DNA from: Squalus acanthias
Lineage: Eukaryota
Direction: 5' to 3'
Assembly: GCA_030390025.1 (NCBI GenBank)
Contig: CM059440.1
Span: 22,878,001 to 22,942,000, forward strand
Length of the DNA: 64,000 bases
In this document: in pieces, positions 3,537 through 61,531 of the stretch
Numbering within the stretch: the first letter of the stretch is position 1
How the letters are laid out: the number at the start of each line of letters is the position of its first letter
Notes under the pieces: model-generated
Database searches by the model: none
Seen by the model: the letters and a program-made list of their open reading frames with translations, nothing else
What the model was told of the DNA's origin: nothing
Made by a program: the position numbers and the translations under genes

Positions 3537-4088
3537 GAGGACCAAACGCAGATTGGGTGACCACTTTGCGGAACGCCTCCGTTCAGTCCGTAAGGGTGAT
3601 CCCGAGCTTCCGGTCGCTTGTCACTTTAATTCTCCGCTCCACTCCCACCTCTCTGTCCTCGGCCTCTTACACTGTTCCAATGAAGCTCAATGTAAGCTCG
3701 AGGAACAGCACCTCATCTTTCGATTAGGCACTTTACAGCCTTCTGGACTCAACATTGAGTTCAACAATTTCAGACTATAACCCCTGCCCACACTTTTACA
3801 GGCGGCAGCTGTTGATGATTCTGCTATCCTCATTTGCAGCATTTAATCTCTCCTGCCTTCCATCCTAGCACAGACGGTCTCTTTTGTTCTTTCCTCCCCT
3901 CCTCGTCTTTCCCTGCCTCTGCACCTGCTTAAAACCTGTTACATCCCTAACTTTTTCCAGTTCTGACGAAGGGTCACAGACCTGAAACGTTGACTCTGTT
4001 TCTCTCTCCACGGATGCCGCCTGGCCTGCTGAGTGTTTCCAGCATTTTCTGTTGTTATTTCAGATTTCCAGCATCCGCAGTATTTTGC
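3537..4088 (+). mobile_element. Penelope-like element 3' fragment (GIY-YIG endonuclease C-terminus plus terminal repeat)
   Basis: GDHFAERLRSVRKGDPELPVACHFNS...LEEQHLIFRLGTLQPSGLNIEFNNFR, followed by the TTCTGACGAAGGGTC..GACCTGAAACGT terminal motif. Confidence 0.85.
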
Positions 4089-5349
4089 TATTGGGCCAGA
4101 AATTAGACTAGGACTGGGTAAGCTGGCTACCAGCCTAATTTCGGAGTTCCCATAGGGAAAAGCCTCTGCCCACCCCATACAAGGCCAGTGGTGTCAAAGA
4201 AGGTTGGGCCCAGGGCAGAGATTTCCTGTGCTAGGAGTTCCTGTATCCCCGGCCTAGGATTTAGAGCAGATTTGGCAGCCAGTACTCCCAGTGAGAAGAG
4301 CCTGCTGAATGGCGTTTTTGGGGCCCACCTTGGAGGTCCAGGCAAAGGACTGTGGCCTGGAACCTCAGATCAATAGCGGAGATTTTTTTCTATCAGTCCC
4401 CTTACAACTGACTATATGCCACAGTTTCCATTATGGGAGGCAGACGCCCATAATGGCCTGGGTGCCTGCCGAGAACATTTCGATTAGGTGACTGCACATA
4501 TTCTGGTTGGGTTAACAGCAGAGGTCACCGCCCGGCGCAATCTCAACAGAATTGCCGAGATCACAGGCCCACATGTTTTCTGGGCCATTATCTTTAACTC
4601 CCATTAATTCTTTCAATAAAGTGCAAAGCAGTCGCAATGATTGATTTGGGCAGCCCTCAGTTTGATCGTTACATCCAGTTGATCACAAGTTTTAATCAAT
4701 TTTATTTACTGACATAAATCAGTACAGTGCTACAAACACCACAGATGACAAACGCATTGGAGAATGAGACGACAGTGTTAAATGTCCAAAGTGGCATTGT
4801 GTGTCCAGTGGAGTAGTGTGAAATCAACATCTGGGTCTTCACCATCGAGCCTGGGTTCTGGTTGGTCAGGCAGTCATTCATAATTTTAGACCACATTGTT
4901 TATCAGGTTGGACAATGTGGACCATGGGATTTTAAAATGTTTCACCAGATCTCTTTGACTAGTTTTTATCACTGTCTCAACGTCCTGCAAAATCTCCACT
5001 TTGCTTTGCAAGGGCAACACAGAGGGGTTCCATCAAGTATTTTAAATCAGCAAAGAACGCTATGCAAAATGTGCTGTTCAGGAGAAAAGAAAGATGCACC
5101 ACACAATTTTGCATTGCTACGGCAGGTGAATGCTGTTCTAATTCACATTCCCACCAGCTGTTAAATTCTTCACCTGCAGCTACTGGACAGTGTTGCACAT
5201 AACAGACAAGGTGCAAGCCCGTGGGCTAACTGGCAAATCATTAGGCTGGATTTGTGCGTAGCTGGAAGGCGGACAGCAGAGTGGTGGTGTGTAGGGAGGT
5301 ATGCCATTGGATTTTCACAGGGATTGGTGTTGGGGGGGGGGGGGGGGGG

Positions 5350-12879: not shown

Positions 12880-13860
12880 TTTTCTTCTGATGAGGAGGAA
12901 AAGGATTTGCTTCTAATTTGGACACAAGATGAGCAAACATCTCTAACAATGCATTGGCTATGGTATCTGCGGCCATGGGCACAAGAGCTACTGTATCTGG
13001 ATACCCAGGTGTGTAGTCTATCATGGTTAATATGTACCATTCCCAGAGTGACTCCTGACAGTTCAAGGAACCCACAACATCTGTATGTCCACCTTTTTTT
13101 CCACACTGTACTGACACCACAGTCTTTGCCTGACTCCAAGTCACCACTCAAGCTTTCTCTTCTATAACCAAATTAGCAACAACATGCCCATCATACAAAT
13201 GATTTCCCAGCAGAAATGGTATAGGTGTAGATGTTACTACTTCCACTCCCAACTACGAGTGGTATTCTGATCAATCCTTGGCCAACTGACCCAGTGAGAC
13301 CACGAGCAAGCATGAGCCAGCCTACTCTCTAGGTATTAGTCGTCCTGCACCAGGTGTGGTTTTACCAGTGTAAGGGTGCACCCAGTATCATGTAGTCCTT
13401 TGGTGGATCGTTTATCAACACTGAGCCTAGGAACGCTATCGTATGCCTTTGCACGCACCCCAGTTTCATGTCTTCTGAGTTGGGTTTGGCCTTCCTAATT
13501 GGGATCTGGCCCACGCCTGGACCAGTAGTTGCTCGTACTGTGCCATATTGCGCTATAGCTGGAGTACCTGAGGTCTCACCCCATGGGGTCTTGCTCTGGC
13601 GCACCTGCTGGATTTTGAAGCGGTGGACACGCATCCAACTGTCTCCTATCCAGTCGCTGGGACCCCAACACTTGTAATGTGGCATAGTGGTCTGCTCATT
13701 CACCTAACTGCTTCAGAGTCTTATGCTCCTAGTCAAGCAACCATATTCATAGATCTTCTGGAATCACTTGCAGAATTCGACTACCTCACAGAGAACAATA
13801 TAGAAACTTTCTTCTGAGCAGTTGTCAGCTTCTACCATTGACTTGTCCTGTCGGACATCT
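12880..13860 (-). mobile_element. Degraded Gypsy-type LTR retrotransposon pol relic (integrase core near 12880-13150)
   Basis: YILTMIDYTPGYPDTVALVPMAADTIANALLEMFAHL resembles the Gypsy integrase pattern YILTxVDYxTRYPEAVAL...AETVAxALLxxF. Extent beyond 13200 is uncertain. Confidence 0.65.
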
Positions 13861-13898
13861 GCCAAATACTTTTAATGTATCACATTTAAAGGGAAAAA

Positions 13899-14284
13899 AG
13901 GAAGAACTTGCATTTATATAGCGCCTTTCATGACCTCGGGACGTCCCAAAGTGCTTTACAGCCAATTAAGTACTTTTGAGGGTAGTCACTGTTGTAATGT
14001 AGGGAAACGTGGCAGCCAAGTTGCACACAGCAAGGTGCCACAAATAGAAATGTGATAATGACCAGATAATCTGTTTTAGTTGGTTGAGGAATAAATGTTG
14101 GCCAGAACACCAGGAGAACTCCCCTGATCTTCTTCAAATAACGCCATGAGATTGTTTATGTCCACCTGAGGGGGCAGATGGGGCCTCGGTTTAATGTCGG
14201 ATCCAAAACACAGCACCTCTGTCAGTGCAGCACTGCACTAAAATGTCAGCCTGGAGTATGTGCTCAAGTCTCTGGTGTGGGGCT
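13899..14284 (-). mobile_element. SacSINE1-like Deu-SINE
   Basis: Reverse complement of the 20700 copy (Deu domain and GGCGCTATATAAATGCAAG tail). Confidence 0.85.
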
Positions 14285-14290
14285 TGATTT

Positions 14291-14540
14291 CCCATCTGCC
14301 CTCTCAGGTGGACGTAAAAGATCCCATGGTACTATTCACAGAAGACCAGGGGAGCTCTCCCGGTGTCCAACACTTATCCCTCAATCAACATCCACCTTGT
14401 GGGACCTTGCTGTGACCAAATTGGCTGCTGCGTTTCCTACATCACAACAGTAACTACACCTCGAAAGTACTTCGTTGACTTTGGGATGTCCGGGGGTGGT
14501 GAAAGGTGCTACTATATAGAAATACAAGTTCTTTCTTTCT
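14291..14540 (+). mobile_element. SacSINE1-like Deu-SINE, 3' part
   Basis: CTCTCAGGTGGACGTAAAAGATCCCATGG...AAATTGGCTGCTGCGTTTCCTACAT. Confidence 0.85.
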
Positions 14541-16296
14541 TACAACAGTCTCTGCACTTTAAAGTAATTGATGGTGTGTGAAATGCTTTGAGATGTTTTT
14601 GATAAATATGAGTGTTTTACAGATGCAAATCCTTATTTCTTTCAAATCGATGCAAGTTCAGTAATTACACTATGGCTTCAGTTAGCCATTTTGTCTGCAA
14701 CTGTAACATCCAATATCGCCCTGCAGTAACTTTATAGAATGATTATTATGATTGTTGCAAACATTTTCAGATTTTTCACCTTCGTTTACCAGCAGTAAAT
14801 TAACTTACAGGAAACAGAATGATACTGTACTTAGTGTAATAAGTAACACTGTGAACGGCAATTAGAGCACCTCAGGGAATAATATTGCTCATTGCTGCAT
14901 GAGTCACAGCGCATAATAGTCTGAGAATGCACCTCGTGGGGAAAACAGGTCCTGGCCACAGAGGGAGTGGAAAAAGAAACACAAGGTAGAAAAGAAGGGA
15001 GGAAAATGAAAAGAAGGATAAAGAAAAGCTTTGCCACATGACATTTCTTTACAAATTACTTACAATGGAAATCAAAGGTAATACATGGATGCAGATTAGT
15101 GACTGCCCAAAGAGAAGGAAGCAGAGGTTGGCTGTAAGGGGGGATGGATCGAAATGGAAGGAGATATTGAGTGAGGTTCCCCGGGGATCTTTGTTGTGAT
15201 TTTCTCTCTCTGGTATACCGAAGTGACCTGGATGTGATGTCTCACTTCAAGCTAATTAAGTGCACAGATGACGCCAAGCCAGGGTGCGTTGTGGCCTCAG
15301 GAGCGCCACCGGGTACGAGCTTCAGCTGATCAAAGGAAAATGAAGTTCAATACATTCAGACAGAAAAACCAGAAAGTAGGTGGACTACTTGGGTGGAAAA
15401 AGGACCTGCCGATGGAAAGCTGAAGCAAACGTGGCGGCGGGGGTGGGGGCTGACAGGGGAGCAATTGTCAATCATTGCATACAAGCAATGTGAGGGGGGA
15501 AAAAACCTCAACTGAATACAATGACTTGATGAGATAATGGCTCTTCAACCTCAAAATGGATTGGCGCGAAGGGGACATTATAGAGGTGTGAAGCTGCTCT
15601 CGAGTCCTGGCCAGAACACTGTATATCAGTGACGTAAGAAAACTACTAGGCACTTGGTCTAAGCGTTAAACAAAGCTTTAATCAACTGTTTTTCAACATG
15701 GAGGTCTAGTTGTGTCCTTTTCTAGTTCCTGTCAAGGAATGTCCTGAGCAAGCTGGGCCCATGCCCGAGTATTTATACTCTCCCTGGACAGCACCACCAG
15801 CAGGCCGCCCAGTATTATTTCATAAGTCATTTCCACATGAATGACAAGATTCATATCAATCAGATCATTAACAAAACAGAGAAAGTAAACCCAGAACAAT
15901 AATTTAAGATACGACATGGCCGTGGGATAAGAGGGAACAGGTTCAGGATTCTGAAGGGCAAGTTTAGCATAAATGCCAAGAAGCTGCGAGGGGCTGTCAC
16001 GAAAGATGGTTTAGACGACTGGTTTCATTTAAGAAACAGCTGGTACTGCAATGGGAAGATGGTAGGGTTGGTATTCTGAGACACCAATGGGCTGAAGGAC
16101 CTCCTTCATCCAAACCTATCTTGTGATTTGTGAAATAACAAAATCTTTTGTAAATAAACGGCACCTTTACACTTACGGAGTTGCTACAGGTAAAGGTGCC
16201 TTAAATAAGCGAATGCAATTCTGCACTGGATCATTTGTCATGGAAAGTAAGATTGGTCTAAGGTGTCAGAAAGCACAGCTGGATGTGTAAAGTTAC

Positions 16297-44530: not shown

Positions 44531-44622
44531 CAAGGGTCATCAACCTGAAACGTTAACTCTGTTTCTCTCTCCACAGATGCTGCCTGACCTGCTGAGTATT
44601 TCCAGCATTTTCTGTTTTTATT
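44531..44622 (+). mobile_element. Short Penelope-terminal-repeat insertion with 13-bp TSD
   Basis: AACAGAGGTGGGT at 44518-44530 and 44623-44635; body matches 3969-4060. Confidence 0.9.
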
Positions 44623-47597: not shown

Positions 47598-47736
47598 TGT
47601 ATATTCTGAAGTTTCAATACTGCCCAATGTAGGCCCTTTCTCCACCATGAAGCTAAGGAGACCCGTCAGGATTGTAGAGACAGACCAGGCTGGGTTCCAG
47701 GTATCTGGATGGAAATCAGTGATTGAAAGACATAAC
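47598..47736 (-). CDS. UBE2J2: UBE2J2 exon containing the catalytic Cys (139 nt)
   Basis: CAG/GTGAGT. (R)LCLSITDFHPDTWNPAWSVSTILTGLLSFMVEKGPTLGSIETSEYT. Confidence 0.97.
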
Positions 47737-54200: not shown

Positions 54201-54805
54201 AATCTCATATTTAAATGAGAAAGAAAAGGGACAGGTAAAAGGCTTTTGAAAAAGCATTTTGTGCAATTTGATCAGTTCAGGTTCTATTTTTGTTTGACTG
54301 ATAGAATTTCAGTACTTCTCAGTTACAGATCTGATCTGTTGCAGCTGAAAGAATGTAGAATTTTTTTTAAGCAATTAGATTGGTTCAGTTTATTTTTCCT
54401 TCGTGGTTTATTTTGCTCAGTGCGCATAGCCACAGGGCCGACTTTTCACTACTTCGTATAAAATTGGAGCAAAGCAAGTGAAAGTGTGTCACAGAAATCC
54501 ACATATAGACAGTGTGTCGGCGTCAGCATGACAGAAACTGCATGCTGGCTGTACCATTTTCACATGAAAAATGTAAGTATCAAAAGGGAATAATTGAAAA
54601 TTAAGTGCAAACTTAAAGAAACCACGAAAGGAGTTAAATTAGCTACGGGTCAAGTTGAAAAAACCCCCCAAAAGGCTCATTAGATTGAACACTCAGTATG
54701 TCCAACCAATGCAGAGTGGCAATCAACAAAGCCAATAGGTTGCTGAACGATCAAACCAAAACAGTAGAATAGAAGTCACAGGAAGTCAGCAGCAAATTGT
54801 ATAGT

Positions 54806-54904
54806 TCTGACGCAAGGTCATCGACCTGAAACGTCGACTCTGTTTCTCTCGCCACAGATGCTGCCTGACCTCCTGAGTATTTCCAGCATTTTCTGTTTTT
54901 ATGA
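54806..54904 (+). mobile_element. Short Penelope-terminal-repeat insertion with 8-bp TSD inside a CR1 relic (about 54690-55350)
   Basis: TGTATAGT at 54798-54805 and 54905-54912. Confidence 0.88.
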
Positions 54905-56501
54905 TGTATAGTGCTTTAGACAGACCACACCTCGCGTGCTGTGCCCAAGACACAAGGGAGACATTCAAGCATTGGAGGCAATTAAGAGGAGAGCCACATG
55001 GCTGTTCCCTGGTGTTAGAGGTTTGGGTTATGAGAAAAGACTGGAGAAACTTAGGCTTTCCAGCTTTGAAAGGAGGCTACCTTAGAGACATACAAGATAG
55101 TAAATGTTATGGAACGCTAAATCTGAAAAAATATTTTAAATTAAATTGTGACAGTTGGACATGGGGGCCGCATGTTCAATTTAGTATTAGAAGGTCTTCC
55201 CGAGTGATCAATACATGGAATGGACTCCCTGATAGAATAGTGGAGGCGAAAATTCATGAACCAATTAGATGCTGCGATGGGCGGTGACTTCAGGGTCATT
55301 CAGCACGTGAACTAAGATTGGCTGAATAAGCTTCCTCATCTGTAACCACTTTGCGATTGAGATTTTTTTTTAAATTCATTCATGGGATGTGGGCGTCGCT
55401 GGCAACGTCAGTATTTATTGCCCATCCCCATCTACACATACAACCAGTTAAGCAAATTTAACGCTATATATACACACTTACCATTCAAGAATATTAGATG
55501 GGAGAGGTTCGGCGCAGATATAAGGCACTGGGTCTTTCTTTATTCGAAGATAGTCCTGTTTCAGTCTCTGTGTTGCCGTTGTTGGAGCTCGCTTGTTACT
55601 GTTGTTGCTCATCTAAGATGAAGAAGTAAAAACAAATTCTCTCATTAGGCAGTTTACAGGTGTAGGGCAGAGCTCTTGTCAAATCCAACTGGCCATTCTT
55701 AGACTAAATGGGCATATATTAAAAAAAAGACGGAAAGCAGAACTAAAAATTAAAATCAAATCAATTGTGAACTAGCCAGAAATACTGTAACAAAGTTCAA
55801 AATAAAGTGAGACATGCAGTTGCAAAACTGATGAAAAATCATTCAGCCATTTCTCGCCAGTTTAGCACAAAAACCATGGCCTATTCACATTTGAACAAGG
55901 GATAAGCAGAACTCATATCCGATATTCTTGGGTATGAATGCGCTATGTCAGCAATGATAAAATTCAGTCAACTAAAACTCATTTTGAACATCCCCGATAT
56001 ATTTGTTTCTACTAAACTGACTGGGAAGTTATTCCAAAGACTTATCACTCTTCCTGAAGCACCCCAGCTCGGTTTGTACCGGGCAGGAATTTCTACAGCC
56101 GATCGATTCCACTTTAAACTCTTCACGTGCAGTTACTTTAAAGTGGTTGTTTTTTTTGACTATTTAGCAGCCAATTCTCTACAGCGATTGCAAAACAACT
56201 TTAGCCGTTCACCCTGCCAGTACCCTTGCAGCAAGATACATGATGTTGCTATCGGCCGCACCAGCTCCAAGCTCTGCTTGCCAGTCGGCGTTACCTCCAG
56301 CTGCAGCAGCACAGGGATCAGTTACACCAACGACTGCAGTGGTGACAAAAATCGACTTTTTTTAAAAATCTGTGTTGAATTTTTTAAACTTATATTTTTG
56401 TATCGCTAGATTCAGCACATAAGGGATTAAAACAGGATTGCACAGACTATTTCTCTAAAGGAATATACACAAAGGTCAGTTCCAGACAAGGTGACTGTGG
56501 T

Positions 56502-56746
56502 AACAAAAACAGAAAATGCTGGCAACACTCAGCAGGTCAGGCAGCATCTGTGGAGAGAGAAACAGAGTCAACGTTTCAGGTCGATGATCCTTCGTCAGAA
56601 CCCTTCCCCAGTTCTGACGAAGGGTTGTCGACCTGAAACATTTACTCGGTTTCGCTCTCCACAGATGCTGCCTGACCTGCTGAGTATTTCCAGCATTTTC
56701 TGTTTTTGTTTCGGATTTCCAGCATCCGCAGTATTTTGCTTTTGTA
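56502..56746. mobile_element. Palindromic Penelope-derived element with 14-bp TSD
   Basis: 100-bp inverted arms at 56502-56601 and 56611-56710. AAGGTGACTGTGGT at 56488-56501 and 56747-56760. Confidence 0.92.
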
Positions 56747-57544
56747 AAGGTGACTGTGGTGGTCTTCAGAAGAACTGATAAGACAGAGGACAATAGTAAG
56801 TTCCATGTTACTGTTCAAATTGGATGTGAAGCACTTTTGAGATGTCTTGAGGACATGATAAAAGTGCTATATAAATAGAGTTACATAAATGCACAGTCCT
56901 TCCTTCTAGTATGTGCAGCACAAGTAATCTGGCGATTACTATCCTTGAGGTCCTGCTCTTTAAGCTAACTCCCAACTCTTTAAACTCCCTTTTGCAGGAC
57001 CTCAATTTTGTTCCTTCCACGTTCTTGATTCCAATGTGAACCACAACTTCTCGCTGTTTCCCCTTCCCTCTCCAAATTCTTTTGTACCAGCGCAGTTGTA
57101 TCCTTGCCCCGGCAGCTGTGAGGCAACACACAATCAAGACTTTTGGTTGTGACTATGAAAGCACCCATTTATTGCTTGGACCATGGAACAACCCAATTAC
57201 GACTGCATCTCGCACTTCACACTCTCCCCTTTAAACACTACGTGCTCTACAGTGCCATAGCATTGCTCATAGTAGGCCGCCTCCACTTGTTGCCATCGTC
57301 ACAGGTATTCAATACTGAGTATCTTTTTATCCCTGCAATGCTTCCCCTTCCTGTCCCGATGGATGGTTATCCACTTCCCTTCCTCACATTGCCTGCAGAG
57401 TGACCAATTAGGAATGTGCACTTGGAGAACCCTTCAGCCCCCCCCAAATGTGACACGTGCCCCCAGCTGCTCCTTAAACTCAGAAACTTTAAGTTCAAGT
57501 GCACGCAGTTGGAGACACTTTCTGCATGTGTGATCATTTCCTTA

Positions 57545-60954: not shown

Positions 60955-61531
60955 CAAAAATAAGGTACTGCGGATGCTGGAAATCAAATAAACACAGAAA
61001 ATGCTGGAAATACTCAGCAGGTCAGGCAGCATCTGTGGAGAGAGAAACAGAGTTAACATTTCAGGTCAGCGACCTTTCGTCAGAACTGGAAAAAGTTAAG
61101 AGATGCCACAGGTTTTAAGCAAGTGCAGGGGCAGGGAAAGGGGGGAGGGGGGAGGACAGAACAAAAAGGGAAGGTCTGTGATAGGATGGAAGACAGGAGA
61201 GATTAAATGACAAAAGGGATGATGGCGCAAGGCAAAAGGAGATGGTAATGCGACAAGTAAAGAATCAAAAGATGGGTCCAGAGGAGGTGTAAATGGGAAC
61301 ATCAGAATCATCAGCAACAGTTGCCGTCTGAAAAAACAGGGAGAGGTTATGGCCTGAAATTGTCGAAATCAATGTTGCGTCCAGAAGGCTGTAAAGTGCC
61401 TAATCAAAAGATGAGATGCTGTTCCTTGAGCTTGCGTTGTGCTTCATTGGAACAGTGTAGCAGGCCGCGAACAGAGAGGTCAGAGTGGGAGCGGTCTGGA
61501 GAATTAAAGTGAGAGGCAACCGGAAGCTCTA
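60955..61531 (-). mobile_element. Penelope-like element 3' fragment with 7-bp TSD, inside a CR1 endonuclease relic
   Basis: Reverse complement is homologous to 3605-4088 (LLHCSNEAQRKLKEQHLIF..GTLQPSG). ATTAAGG at 60948-60954 and 61532-61538. Confidence 0.85.

Follow-up and report, generated by a model that had tools for sequence, protein, structure and literature searches.

Background

The head-to-head arrangement of Penelope-like element (PLE) copies is already published (PMC3846280, PMC8557442, PMC4209133), and the origin of the tandem and inverted structures of these elements is called undefined in PMC8557442. The biochemical study closest to the subject (PMC11167929) describes a PLE protein, predicted to be dimeric, which in vitro cuts and extends both strands of its target, copies uncleaved RNA and starts at two sites bounding the tail, with start sites used alike on both strands. 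It leaves the later steps of integration open, and a search of its text revealed no treatment of inverted products or target-site duplications (TSDs). As to the minimal type I hammerhead ribozymes (min-HHRs) of PLEs, single motifs are described as showing no cleavage and dimers as having low activity, a dimer of the same sense being required (PMC4209133). A literature search, with most subscription journals outside its coverage, brought up neither a paper on PLE hairpins in sharks nor one on twin priming by PLEs. Here we describe a hairpin-shaped insertion in a 64,000-nucleotide stretch of genomic DNA of the shark Squalus acanthias (the whole stretch that was analysed, hereafter "the window") and the genome-wide class of insertions to which it belongs.

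Results and discussion

Anatomy of the hairpin at 56488–56760

The insert is 245 bp long and comprises two arms of 100 nt each (56502–56601 and 56611–56710) with a 9-nt gap between them, flanked by the 14-bp direct repeat AAGGTGACTGTGGT (56488–56501 and 56747–56760, 14/14 identical). The sequence re-check thus reproduced the 100-nt arms, 9-nt loop and perfect 14-bp TSD of the original prediction. The arms are 91% complementary, differing at 9 of 100 positions (9.8% over the scored columns); none of the nine mismatches is compensated and the longest perfect run of the stem is 31 bp. The folding z-score is -20.4, and none of 200 shuffles folded equally well. Both arms open, on opposite strands, with GTT-CTGACGA-A-stem-GAAAC, so that the hammerhead-like core claimed for each arm, one per strand, is indeed there. 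The hairpin is not a symmetric palindrome, because the right arm alone carries a 36-nt extension (56711–56746) without a partner in the left arm; this extension is the known PLE "tail", and since it lies outside the right arm, the inverted repeats do not occupy both termini of the 245-bp insert. With element positions numbered from the hammerhead C3 as +1, the features are as follows:

56488–56501, no strand: left TSD of 14 bp, the commonest length among the TSDs of 50 sister hairpins
56502–56601, minus strand: tail-less arm, PLE 3' end from -2 to +97, reading outward (sequence comparison)
56566–56602, minus strand: left-arm hammerhead-like motif, in sense orientation within UBE2J2 pre-mRNA; its core is intact, its triplet is GUU and helix II contains an A-C mismatch
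56602–56607, no strand: filler CCTTCC, which the upstream sequence of the parent lacks and which repeats CCTTC of the left arm
56608–56710, plus strand: tailed arm, PLE 3' end from -5 to +97 (sequence comparison)
56610–56646, plus strand: right-arm hammerhead-like motif; core intact, triplet AUU, 15.2-16.2 pair lost, U-U in helix I
56711–56746, plus strand: 36-nt PLE tail, on one arm only (sequence; tail as described in PMC8557442 and PMC11167929)
56747–56760, no strand: right TSD, matching the left copy at 14/14 positions

The filler is likely a templated insertion made during end-joining.

Parent element and other copies in the window

Sequences matching both arms occur at four further places in the window:

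3537–4093, plus strand: 5'-truncated parent copy with the GIY-YIG end, hammerhead and tail (sequence match)
44532–44622, plus strand: single-armed tail-less stub with a 13-bp direct repeat (sequence match)
54803–54902, plus strand: single-armed tail-less stub starting at -3, the first base of the hammerhead (sequence match)
60955–61529, minus strand: 5'-truncated parent copy with tail (sequence match)

The proposed likeness of the arms to the ends of the copies at 3537 and 60955 was confirmed (88% match). The closest genomic relatives of the 3537 copy reach as far as about 2 kb upstream, into an open reading frame (ORF) with a reverse transcriptase (RT) region (YIDD), followed by the linker CKRRRCNTC and a GIY-YIG domain with internal cysteines (CCHH-type); Pfam matches to RVT_1 (E 0.0015) and GIY-YIG (E 0.0005) are both below the curated cut-offs. 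The suggested PLE origin is upheld by the match of the arms to copies of this RT plus GIY-YIG parent, and judging from sequence the arms are the 3' end of an EN+ PLE. All hallmarks of an EN+ PLE insertion were found: a parent with RT and C-terminal GIY-YIG, an inverted 5'-truncated neighbour copy, a tail at one end and a TSD. A CX2-5CxxC linker together with CCHH marks Neptune and Nematis, while Penelope and Poseidon lack the linker (PMC8557442); since the linker Zn-finger CKRRRCNTC stands upstream of the endonuclease, the parent would by its motifs be of the Neptune/Nematis type rather than Penelope/Poseidon.

Two other repeats were seen in the window. The first (13894–14541), likewise an inverted head-to-head element, is larger than the hairpin and belongs to another repeat family; it has several arm segments that are 70–85% complementary, and a 12-nt near-direct repeat at 13795/14511 that is not a clear TSD. 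The second (2061–2407) is a tandem array with 78-bp spacing and about 96% identity.

Hammerhead motifs

The Rfam scan of the window (E up to 1) returned two unrelated weak matches and no hammerhead, and the identification therefore leans on the description of min-HHRs in PMC4209133. In 107 family copies, picked by motif pattern, the core CTGAYGA is kept in 91, pairing in 86–91% (helix II) and 76–87% (helix I), and C-G at 15.2-16.2 in 87, with loop II variable and helix changes one-sided only. The family thus exhibits the CUGANGA/GAAA core, the extra base before helix II, helices I and II and the palindromic 15.2-16.2 pair of the minimal type I hammerhead, while the pair G10.1-C11.1 is represented by G-U in 60, A-U in 33 and G-C in only 3 of the 107 copies. 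Minimal type I ancestry, as originally proposed, is accordingly supported in all features except the last.

The same cannot be said of self-cleavage at the hairpin. Both motifs are damaged (left: A-C in helix II; right: AUU, 15.2-16.2 lost, U-U in helix I), the predicted probability of their helices within the hairpin is 0.000, forcing either motif to form would cost 45–46 kcal/mol, and min-HHRs need a dimer of the same sense (PMC4209133). Whichever strand is transcribed, the antisense arm comes first. Both hammerheads are predicted to be masked by the stem, as inactive passengers.

Genome-wide class

The exact arm 15-mer occurs 58,110 times in the genome. Head-to-head pairs within 200 nt number 4,049 vs 32 tail-to-tail pairs, and the latter count is close to a rough chance estimate of about 45 from the 58,110 anchors. 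The window hairpin is one of thousands of stub-sized head-to-head PLE insertions. For an unselected sample we took the first 75 anchors on one contig (C1), which gave 66 insertions after four anchor pairs and two loci already sampled had been merged and three duplicated loci dropped; 19 of these were two-armed, while the 47 single-armed insertions comprised 24 tailed and 23 tail-less ones (counted by eye).

The tail distinguishes the two arms of nearly every classifiable hairpin. Among the first 50 of the 4,049 pairs together with the window hairpin, 43/51 joined a tailed arm (ending near +131) to a tail-less one (near +97), one had two tails and seven were unclassifiable; with three near-duplicates and the window locus left out and slightly wider bins, the combination was found in 44/47. 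A second set, 50 of 59 hairpins chosen for a junction at the hammerhead start, contained 36 mixed hairpins and 2 without a tail on either arm, while 12 could not be classified. Of these 50 junction-selected hairpins, 40 are flanked by a TSD of 10–20 bp (mode 14), the null expectation of the caller being 0.45.

As a separate observation, the arms of the 19 two-armed insertions were, by eye, both short in 13, both long in 4 and mixed in 2; like-length arms look as if the same end of one RNA had been copied twice.

Origin of the inverted arms

We consider it probable (roughly 0.6) that the hairpin is a single insertion of the 3' end of an EN+ PLE, in which both strands of a staggered 14-bp cut were primed on the same RNA and the cDNAs were end-joined head-to-head. 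After the staggered 14-bp cut, both nicked target strands would prime reverse transcription and copy one RNA, one of them at the start site at the end of the tail and the other at the start site about 35 nt inside; joining of the two cDNAs end to end would then yield the head-to-head arms. Two priming events, one RNA and end-joining are what we infer. The original prediction of one insertion event during target-primed reverse transcription (TPRT) is retained in this form, and only a simple single-RNA inversion of non-overlapping pieces has to be given up, because both arms carry the same 100 nt. In L1 twin priming, the two pieces are not known to repeat each other. The equal use of start sites reported in vitro (PMC11167929) would not by itself predict the strict pairing of a tailed with a tail-less arm.

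The evidence for one template comes from variants common to both arms. Non-majority, non-CpG variants were shared by the two arms of a hairpin 72 times in the 50 junction-selected loci, vs 11.5 +/- 5.0 in the null (maximum 27 in 1000 shuffles), rare variants carried by 2–4 arms coincided in one locus 12 times vs 0.78 expected, and arm divergence was 5.0% within loci vs 8.2% between loci. A mixed set of 63 loci gave 37 shared variants vs 3.0. "One RNA" is a result for the family and not for the window locus, because the arms of the latter differ at 9/100 positions and rank only 44th of 50 in likeness; they disagree at the common family variants +30 and +73, the second of which is discordant in 4/55 pairs. 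Shared variants could reflect a single source locus, a single active subfamily, or gene conversion after insertion.

Such sharing, together with the strict head-to-head orientation, is also explained by folding back or self-priming: a single cDNA or antisense RNA would be copied into a hairpin before integration, one end losing its tail by trimming. PMC3846280 favours self-priming on an antisense template. The junctions of the 51 hairpins speak both ways: 22 show overlap (microhomology) and several are perfect palindromes, as folding back would produce, but 27 contain fillers (the remaining 2 are blunt). The 5' reach of the arms is harder to reconcile with it. Among 44 mixed hairpins the tail-less arm reaches further 5' in 15, the tailed arm in 14, and 15 are level; where the tail-less arm extends further 5', neither arm is nested in the other, an arrangement impossible from one cDNA unless the centres were later deleted. 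Later deletions at palindrome centres could obscure which arm extended further. Folding back onto an internal site also does not predict that the arms often stop together at -2 to -5 with unrelated fillers between them, and on balance we regard the fold-back route as unlikely.

Two RNAs, or two pLTR copies of a tandem transcript, might instead serve one target strand each in a dimeric enzyme. The discordance of the window arms at +30 and +73, that at +73 in 4/55 pairs, and the predicted dimer (PMC11167929) would suit this, but rare variants shared 12 times vs 0.78 expected would not; there is no obvious reason for one tailed and one tail-less start, and the data would require the two RNAs to stem from a single source locus, which makes the explanation improbable.

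Two observations on base changes stand apart from these alternatives. No one-strand A-to-G scar was seen in the arms of the window hairpin. In the 50 hairpins, unshared changes in element sense comprise 24 A>G on 15 A columns vs 20 T>C on 31 T columns, and 33 C>T on 21 columns vs 8 G>A on 11; this strand skew could stem from old CpG sites, subfamily variants or RNA-level editing.

Junctions and mobility as a unit

The alternative offered in the original prediction, a non-autonomous hairpin family (MITE-like or retrozyme-like) that moves as a unit, did not find support. The arm-loop-arm junction of the window hairpin has no second copy in the genome with up to 2 mismatches allowed, and the centres of 50 unselected hairpins vary widely across loci; because of both, the window hairpin is not a copy from a hairpin family. 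MITEs have inverted repeats at both termini and occur as a fixed unit whose many copies differ in their TSDs, whereas here the junction is unique and the centres vary. Two recurrences speak for a mobile unit: a junction found at 5 loci that differ in their flanks but have the tail on the same arm, and a 10-nt loop common to two loci. Yet the junction recurs also with the tail on the other arm (L272), and the loop is ordinary upstream sequence in a subfamily with 622 matches. We therefore consider a hairpin family very improbable.

The recurrent arm-arm junction, related to that of the window, was observed at six unrelated loci (L252, L263, L265, L266, L270 and L272), with the tail on the same arm at five and on the other arm at the sixth; two further matches are due to chance. 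A small sub-unit may move as a unit there. The 10-nt loop was rejected as a mobile unit after inspection of 30 of the 622 matches, all 30 of which proved to be the subfamily's upstream sequence. That subfamily (L221-L250, e.g. G000:C1:10037901; 622 exact matches) consists of very similar copies, several of which form inverted pairs 0.1–2 kb apart. The L221-L250 upstream sequences differ yet keep a pyrimidine tract and CAG before the hammerhead.

Inner ends and the putative transcript start

The inner ends of the arms pile up just 5' of the hammerhead: out of 94, 32 lie at -6 to 0 and 6 upstream of that range, while 4 are close to the cleavage site, within a 200-nt pair search that limits long arms and allows ends to about -45 on both sides. 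Individual stops are spread over -2 to -5. With 4/94 ends near the cut site, hammerhead cleavage was rejected as the origin of the inner ends. We infer that the pile-up at -6 to 0 marks the 5' end of the RNA.

The site at the hammerhead start reads CCAGTTC, which fits both the initiator pattern (YYANWYY) and a 3' splice site. The base following a stop at -3 is G in 18/29 arms (p 0.0014 vs one third), a position at which 27/27 long copies carry C; genome-wide it is G in 535 cases, with A plus T in 727. Untemplated G at full-length L1 and SVA ends has been read as a copied cap (PMC4859970), and the extra G here gives a hint, and only a hint, of the same. Other explanations apply to 4 of the 15 G loci inspected: overlap with the other arm accounts in part for the G in 2 of the 15, and in 2 long copies it is a plain substitution. 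The wall of inner ends may also be due to a spliced upstream exon: a pyrimidine tract with CAG is kept at the site by three subfamilies, and an intron ends at the same spot in D. virilis (PMC4209133), but no constant sequence precedes the extra G in any of the 15 loci.

A more specific version of the single-insertion model can be put forward tentatively, with odds rather against it: one enzyme dimer would hold ONE capped RNA, each target strand would always be primed at a different start site, and the cDNAs would end at a transcript start at the initiator-like CCAGTTC, located at the first base of the hammerhead. If true, this model would cover the inverted ends, the one-sided tail and the TSD together, and the thousands of hairpins would be a genomic record of the unsolved step of PLE integration.

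Genomic context and age

The exons of UBE2J2 were found by translation, on the minus strand of the window; the genome search with PF00179 missed these short exons. A later exon at 47598–47738 matches PDB UBE2J2 (E 8.8e-27), and the first coding exon is the following:

55482–55612, minus strand: first coding exon of UBE2J2, with a pyrimidine tract and AG immediately ahead of it

About 0.9 kb separates this exon from the hairpin upstream of it. The signals in front of the ATG exon (pyrimidine tract, AG), together with the clear CpG islands found beyond the window, likely place the hairpin in UBE2J2 intron 1. The original claim of a long stem in probable UBE2J2 pre-mRNA is thereby supported: the gene and its minus strand are confirmed, and the intronic position is deduced from the exon boundary.

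Flank contigs of organisms B and C enter the left arm by 29 nt and the tail by 25 nt, and those of organism E enter the tail by 24 nt, overlaps shorter than the 31-letter bridging rule for presence; they end where the same-species run ends, and their flanks diverge by 3–7%. Because these contigs run 24–29 nt into the element, the hairpin is likely shared with organisms B, C and E, and its insertion is likely old. No empty site was seen among the 15 joints inspected out of 1,468, a sample that carries no weight as evidence. The hairpin likely decays neutrally in intron 1. That it was kept because it serves the UBE2J2 pre-mRNA (by self-cleavage, as an editing substrate or in splicing control) is hardly credible: flank contigs of two or three other organisms run into the element, which is likely shared, and its stem is long, with a perfect run of 31 bp, but it has nine uncompensated mismatches, both hammerheads are damaged and masked, and an arm divergence of 9% is of about the same order as the 3–7% of the flanks. 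Close to the hairpin, at 56817, the runs X5, X6 and X8 all have 6 extra bases relative to the window, and a 17-bp inverted repeat (56830–56868) adjoins this difference.

Comparison with known systems

The locus itself is ordinary; its value lies in the class, whose family statistics are of modest mechanistic worth. The pairing of tailed with tail-less arms, the variants common to both arms and the wall of inner ends at the hammerhead start make concrete predictions for the existing in vitro system, and intronic dsRNA may arise in this genome from the thousands of inverted repeats of about 100 bp.

Unlike in L1 twin priming, the same 100 nt are present in each arm, and the insert terminates on either side with a 3' end of the element. 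In common with the L1 case, a second primer supplied by the other target strand would produce the inversion in the course of TPRT and leave small indels where the two pieces meet (PMC4859970). The non-LTR retrozymes described in 10.64898/2026.07.22.740005 are likewise non-coding, PLE-derived and equipped with a type I hammerhead, but they consist of two or more tandem units in succession, each bearing a complete hammerhead, where the present element has an inverted pair. Metazoan PLE min-HHRs (PMC4209133) share with it the CUGAYGA core, the extra base before helix II, the 4-bp helix I and the palindromic 15.2-16.2 pair, and differ in 10.1-11.1 (here G-U or A-U, not G-C), in helix II (here 5 bp) and in the triplet (here GUU). 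Dual min-HHR motifs on opposite strands are reported there for Schistosoma mansoni at a distance of 100–700 bp, vs about 15 nt between the two cores of the window hairpin.

The Poseidon element of Anolis (PAc) studied in vitro (PMC11167929) agrees with the shark family in a tail bounded by two RT start sites with a hammerhead just upstream, and with the model proposed here in the cutting and extension of both strands and the copying of uncleaved RNA; the shark parent carries the CX4CxxC linker that Penelope and Poseidon lack (PMC8557442). Close counterparts are the insertion units of EN+ PLEs (Pen2a_Av in PMC3846280; Fig. 2 of PMC8557442), in which, as here, an adjacent inverted 5'-truncated copy lies head-to-head within a TSD and a 30–40-bp tail is present at one end only. 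Their TSDs are 8–10 bp long vs the mode of 14 bp here, and what sets the shark insertions apart from these units is that both arms comprise just the last 100–136 nt of the element, with no ORF, and that such hairpins are counted in thousands.
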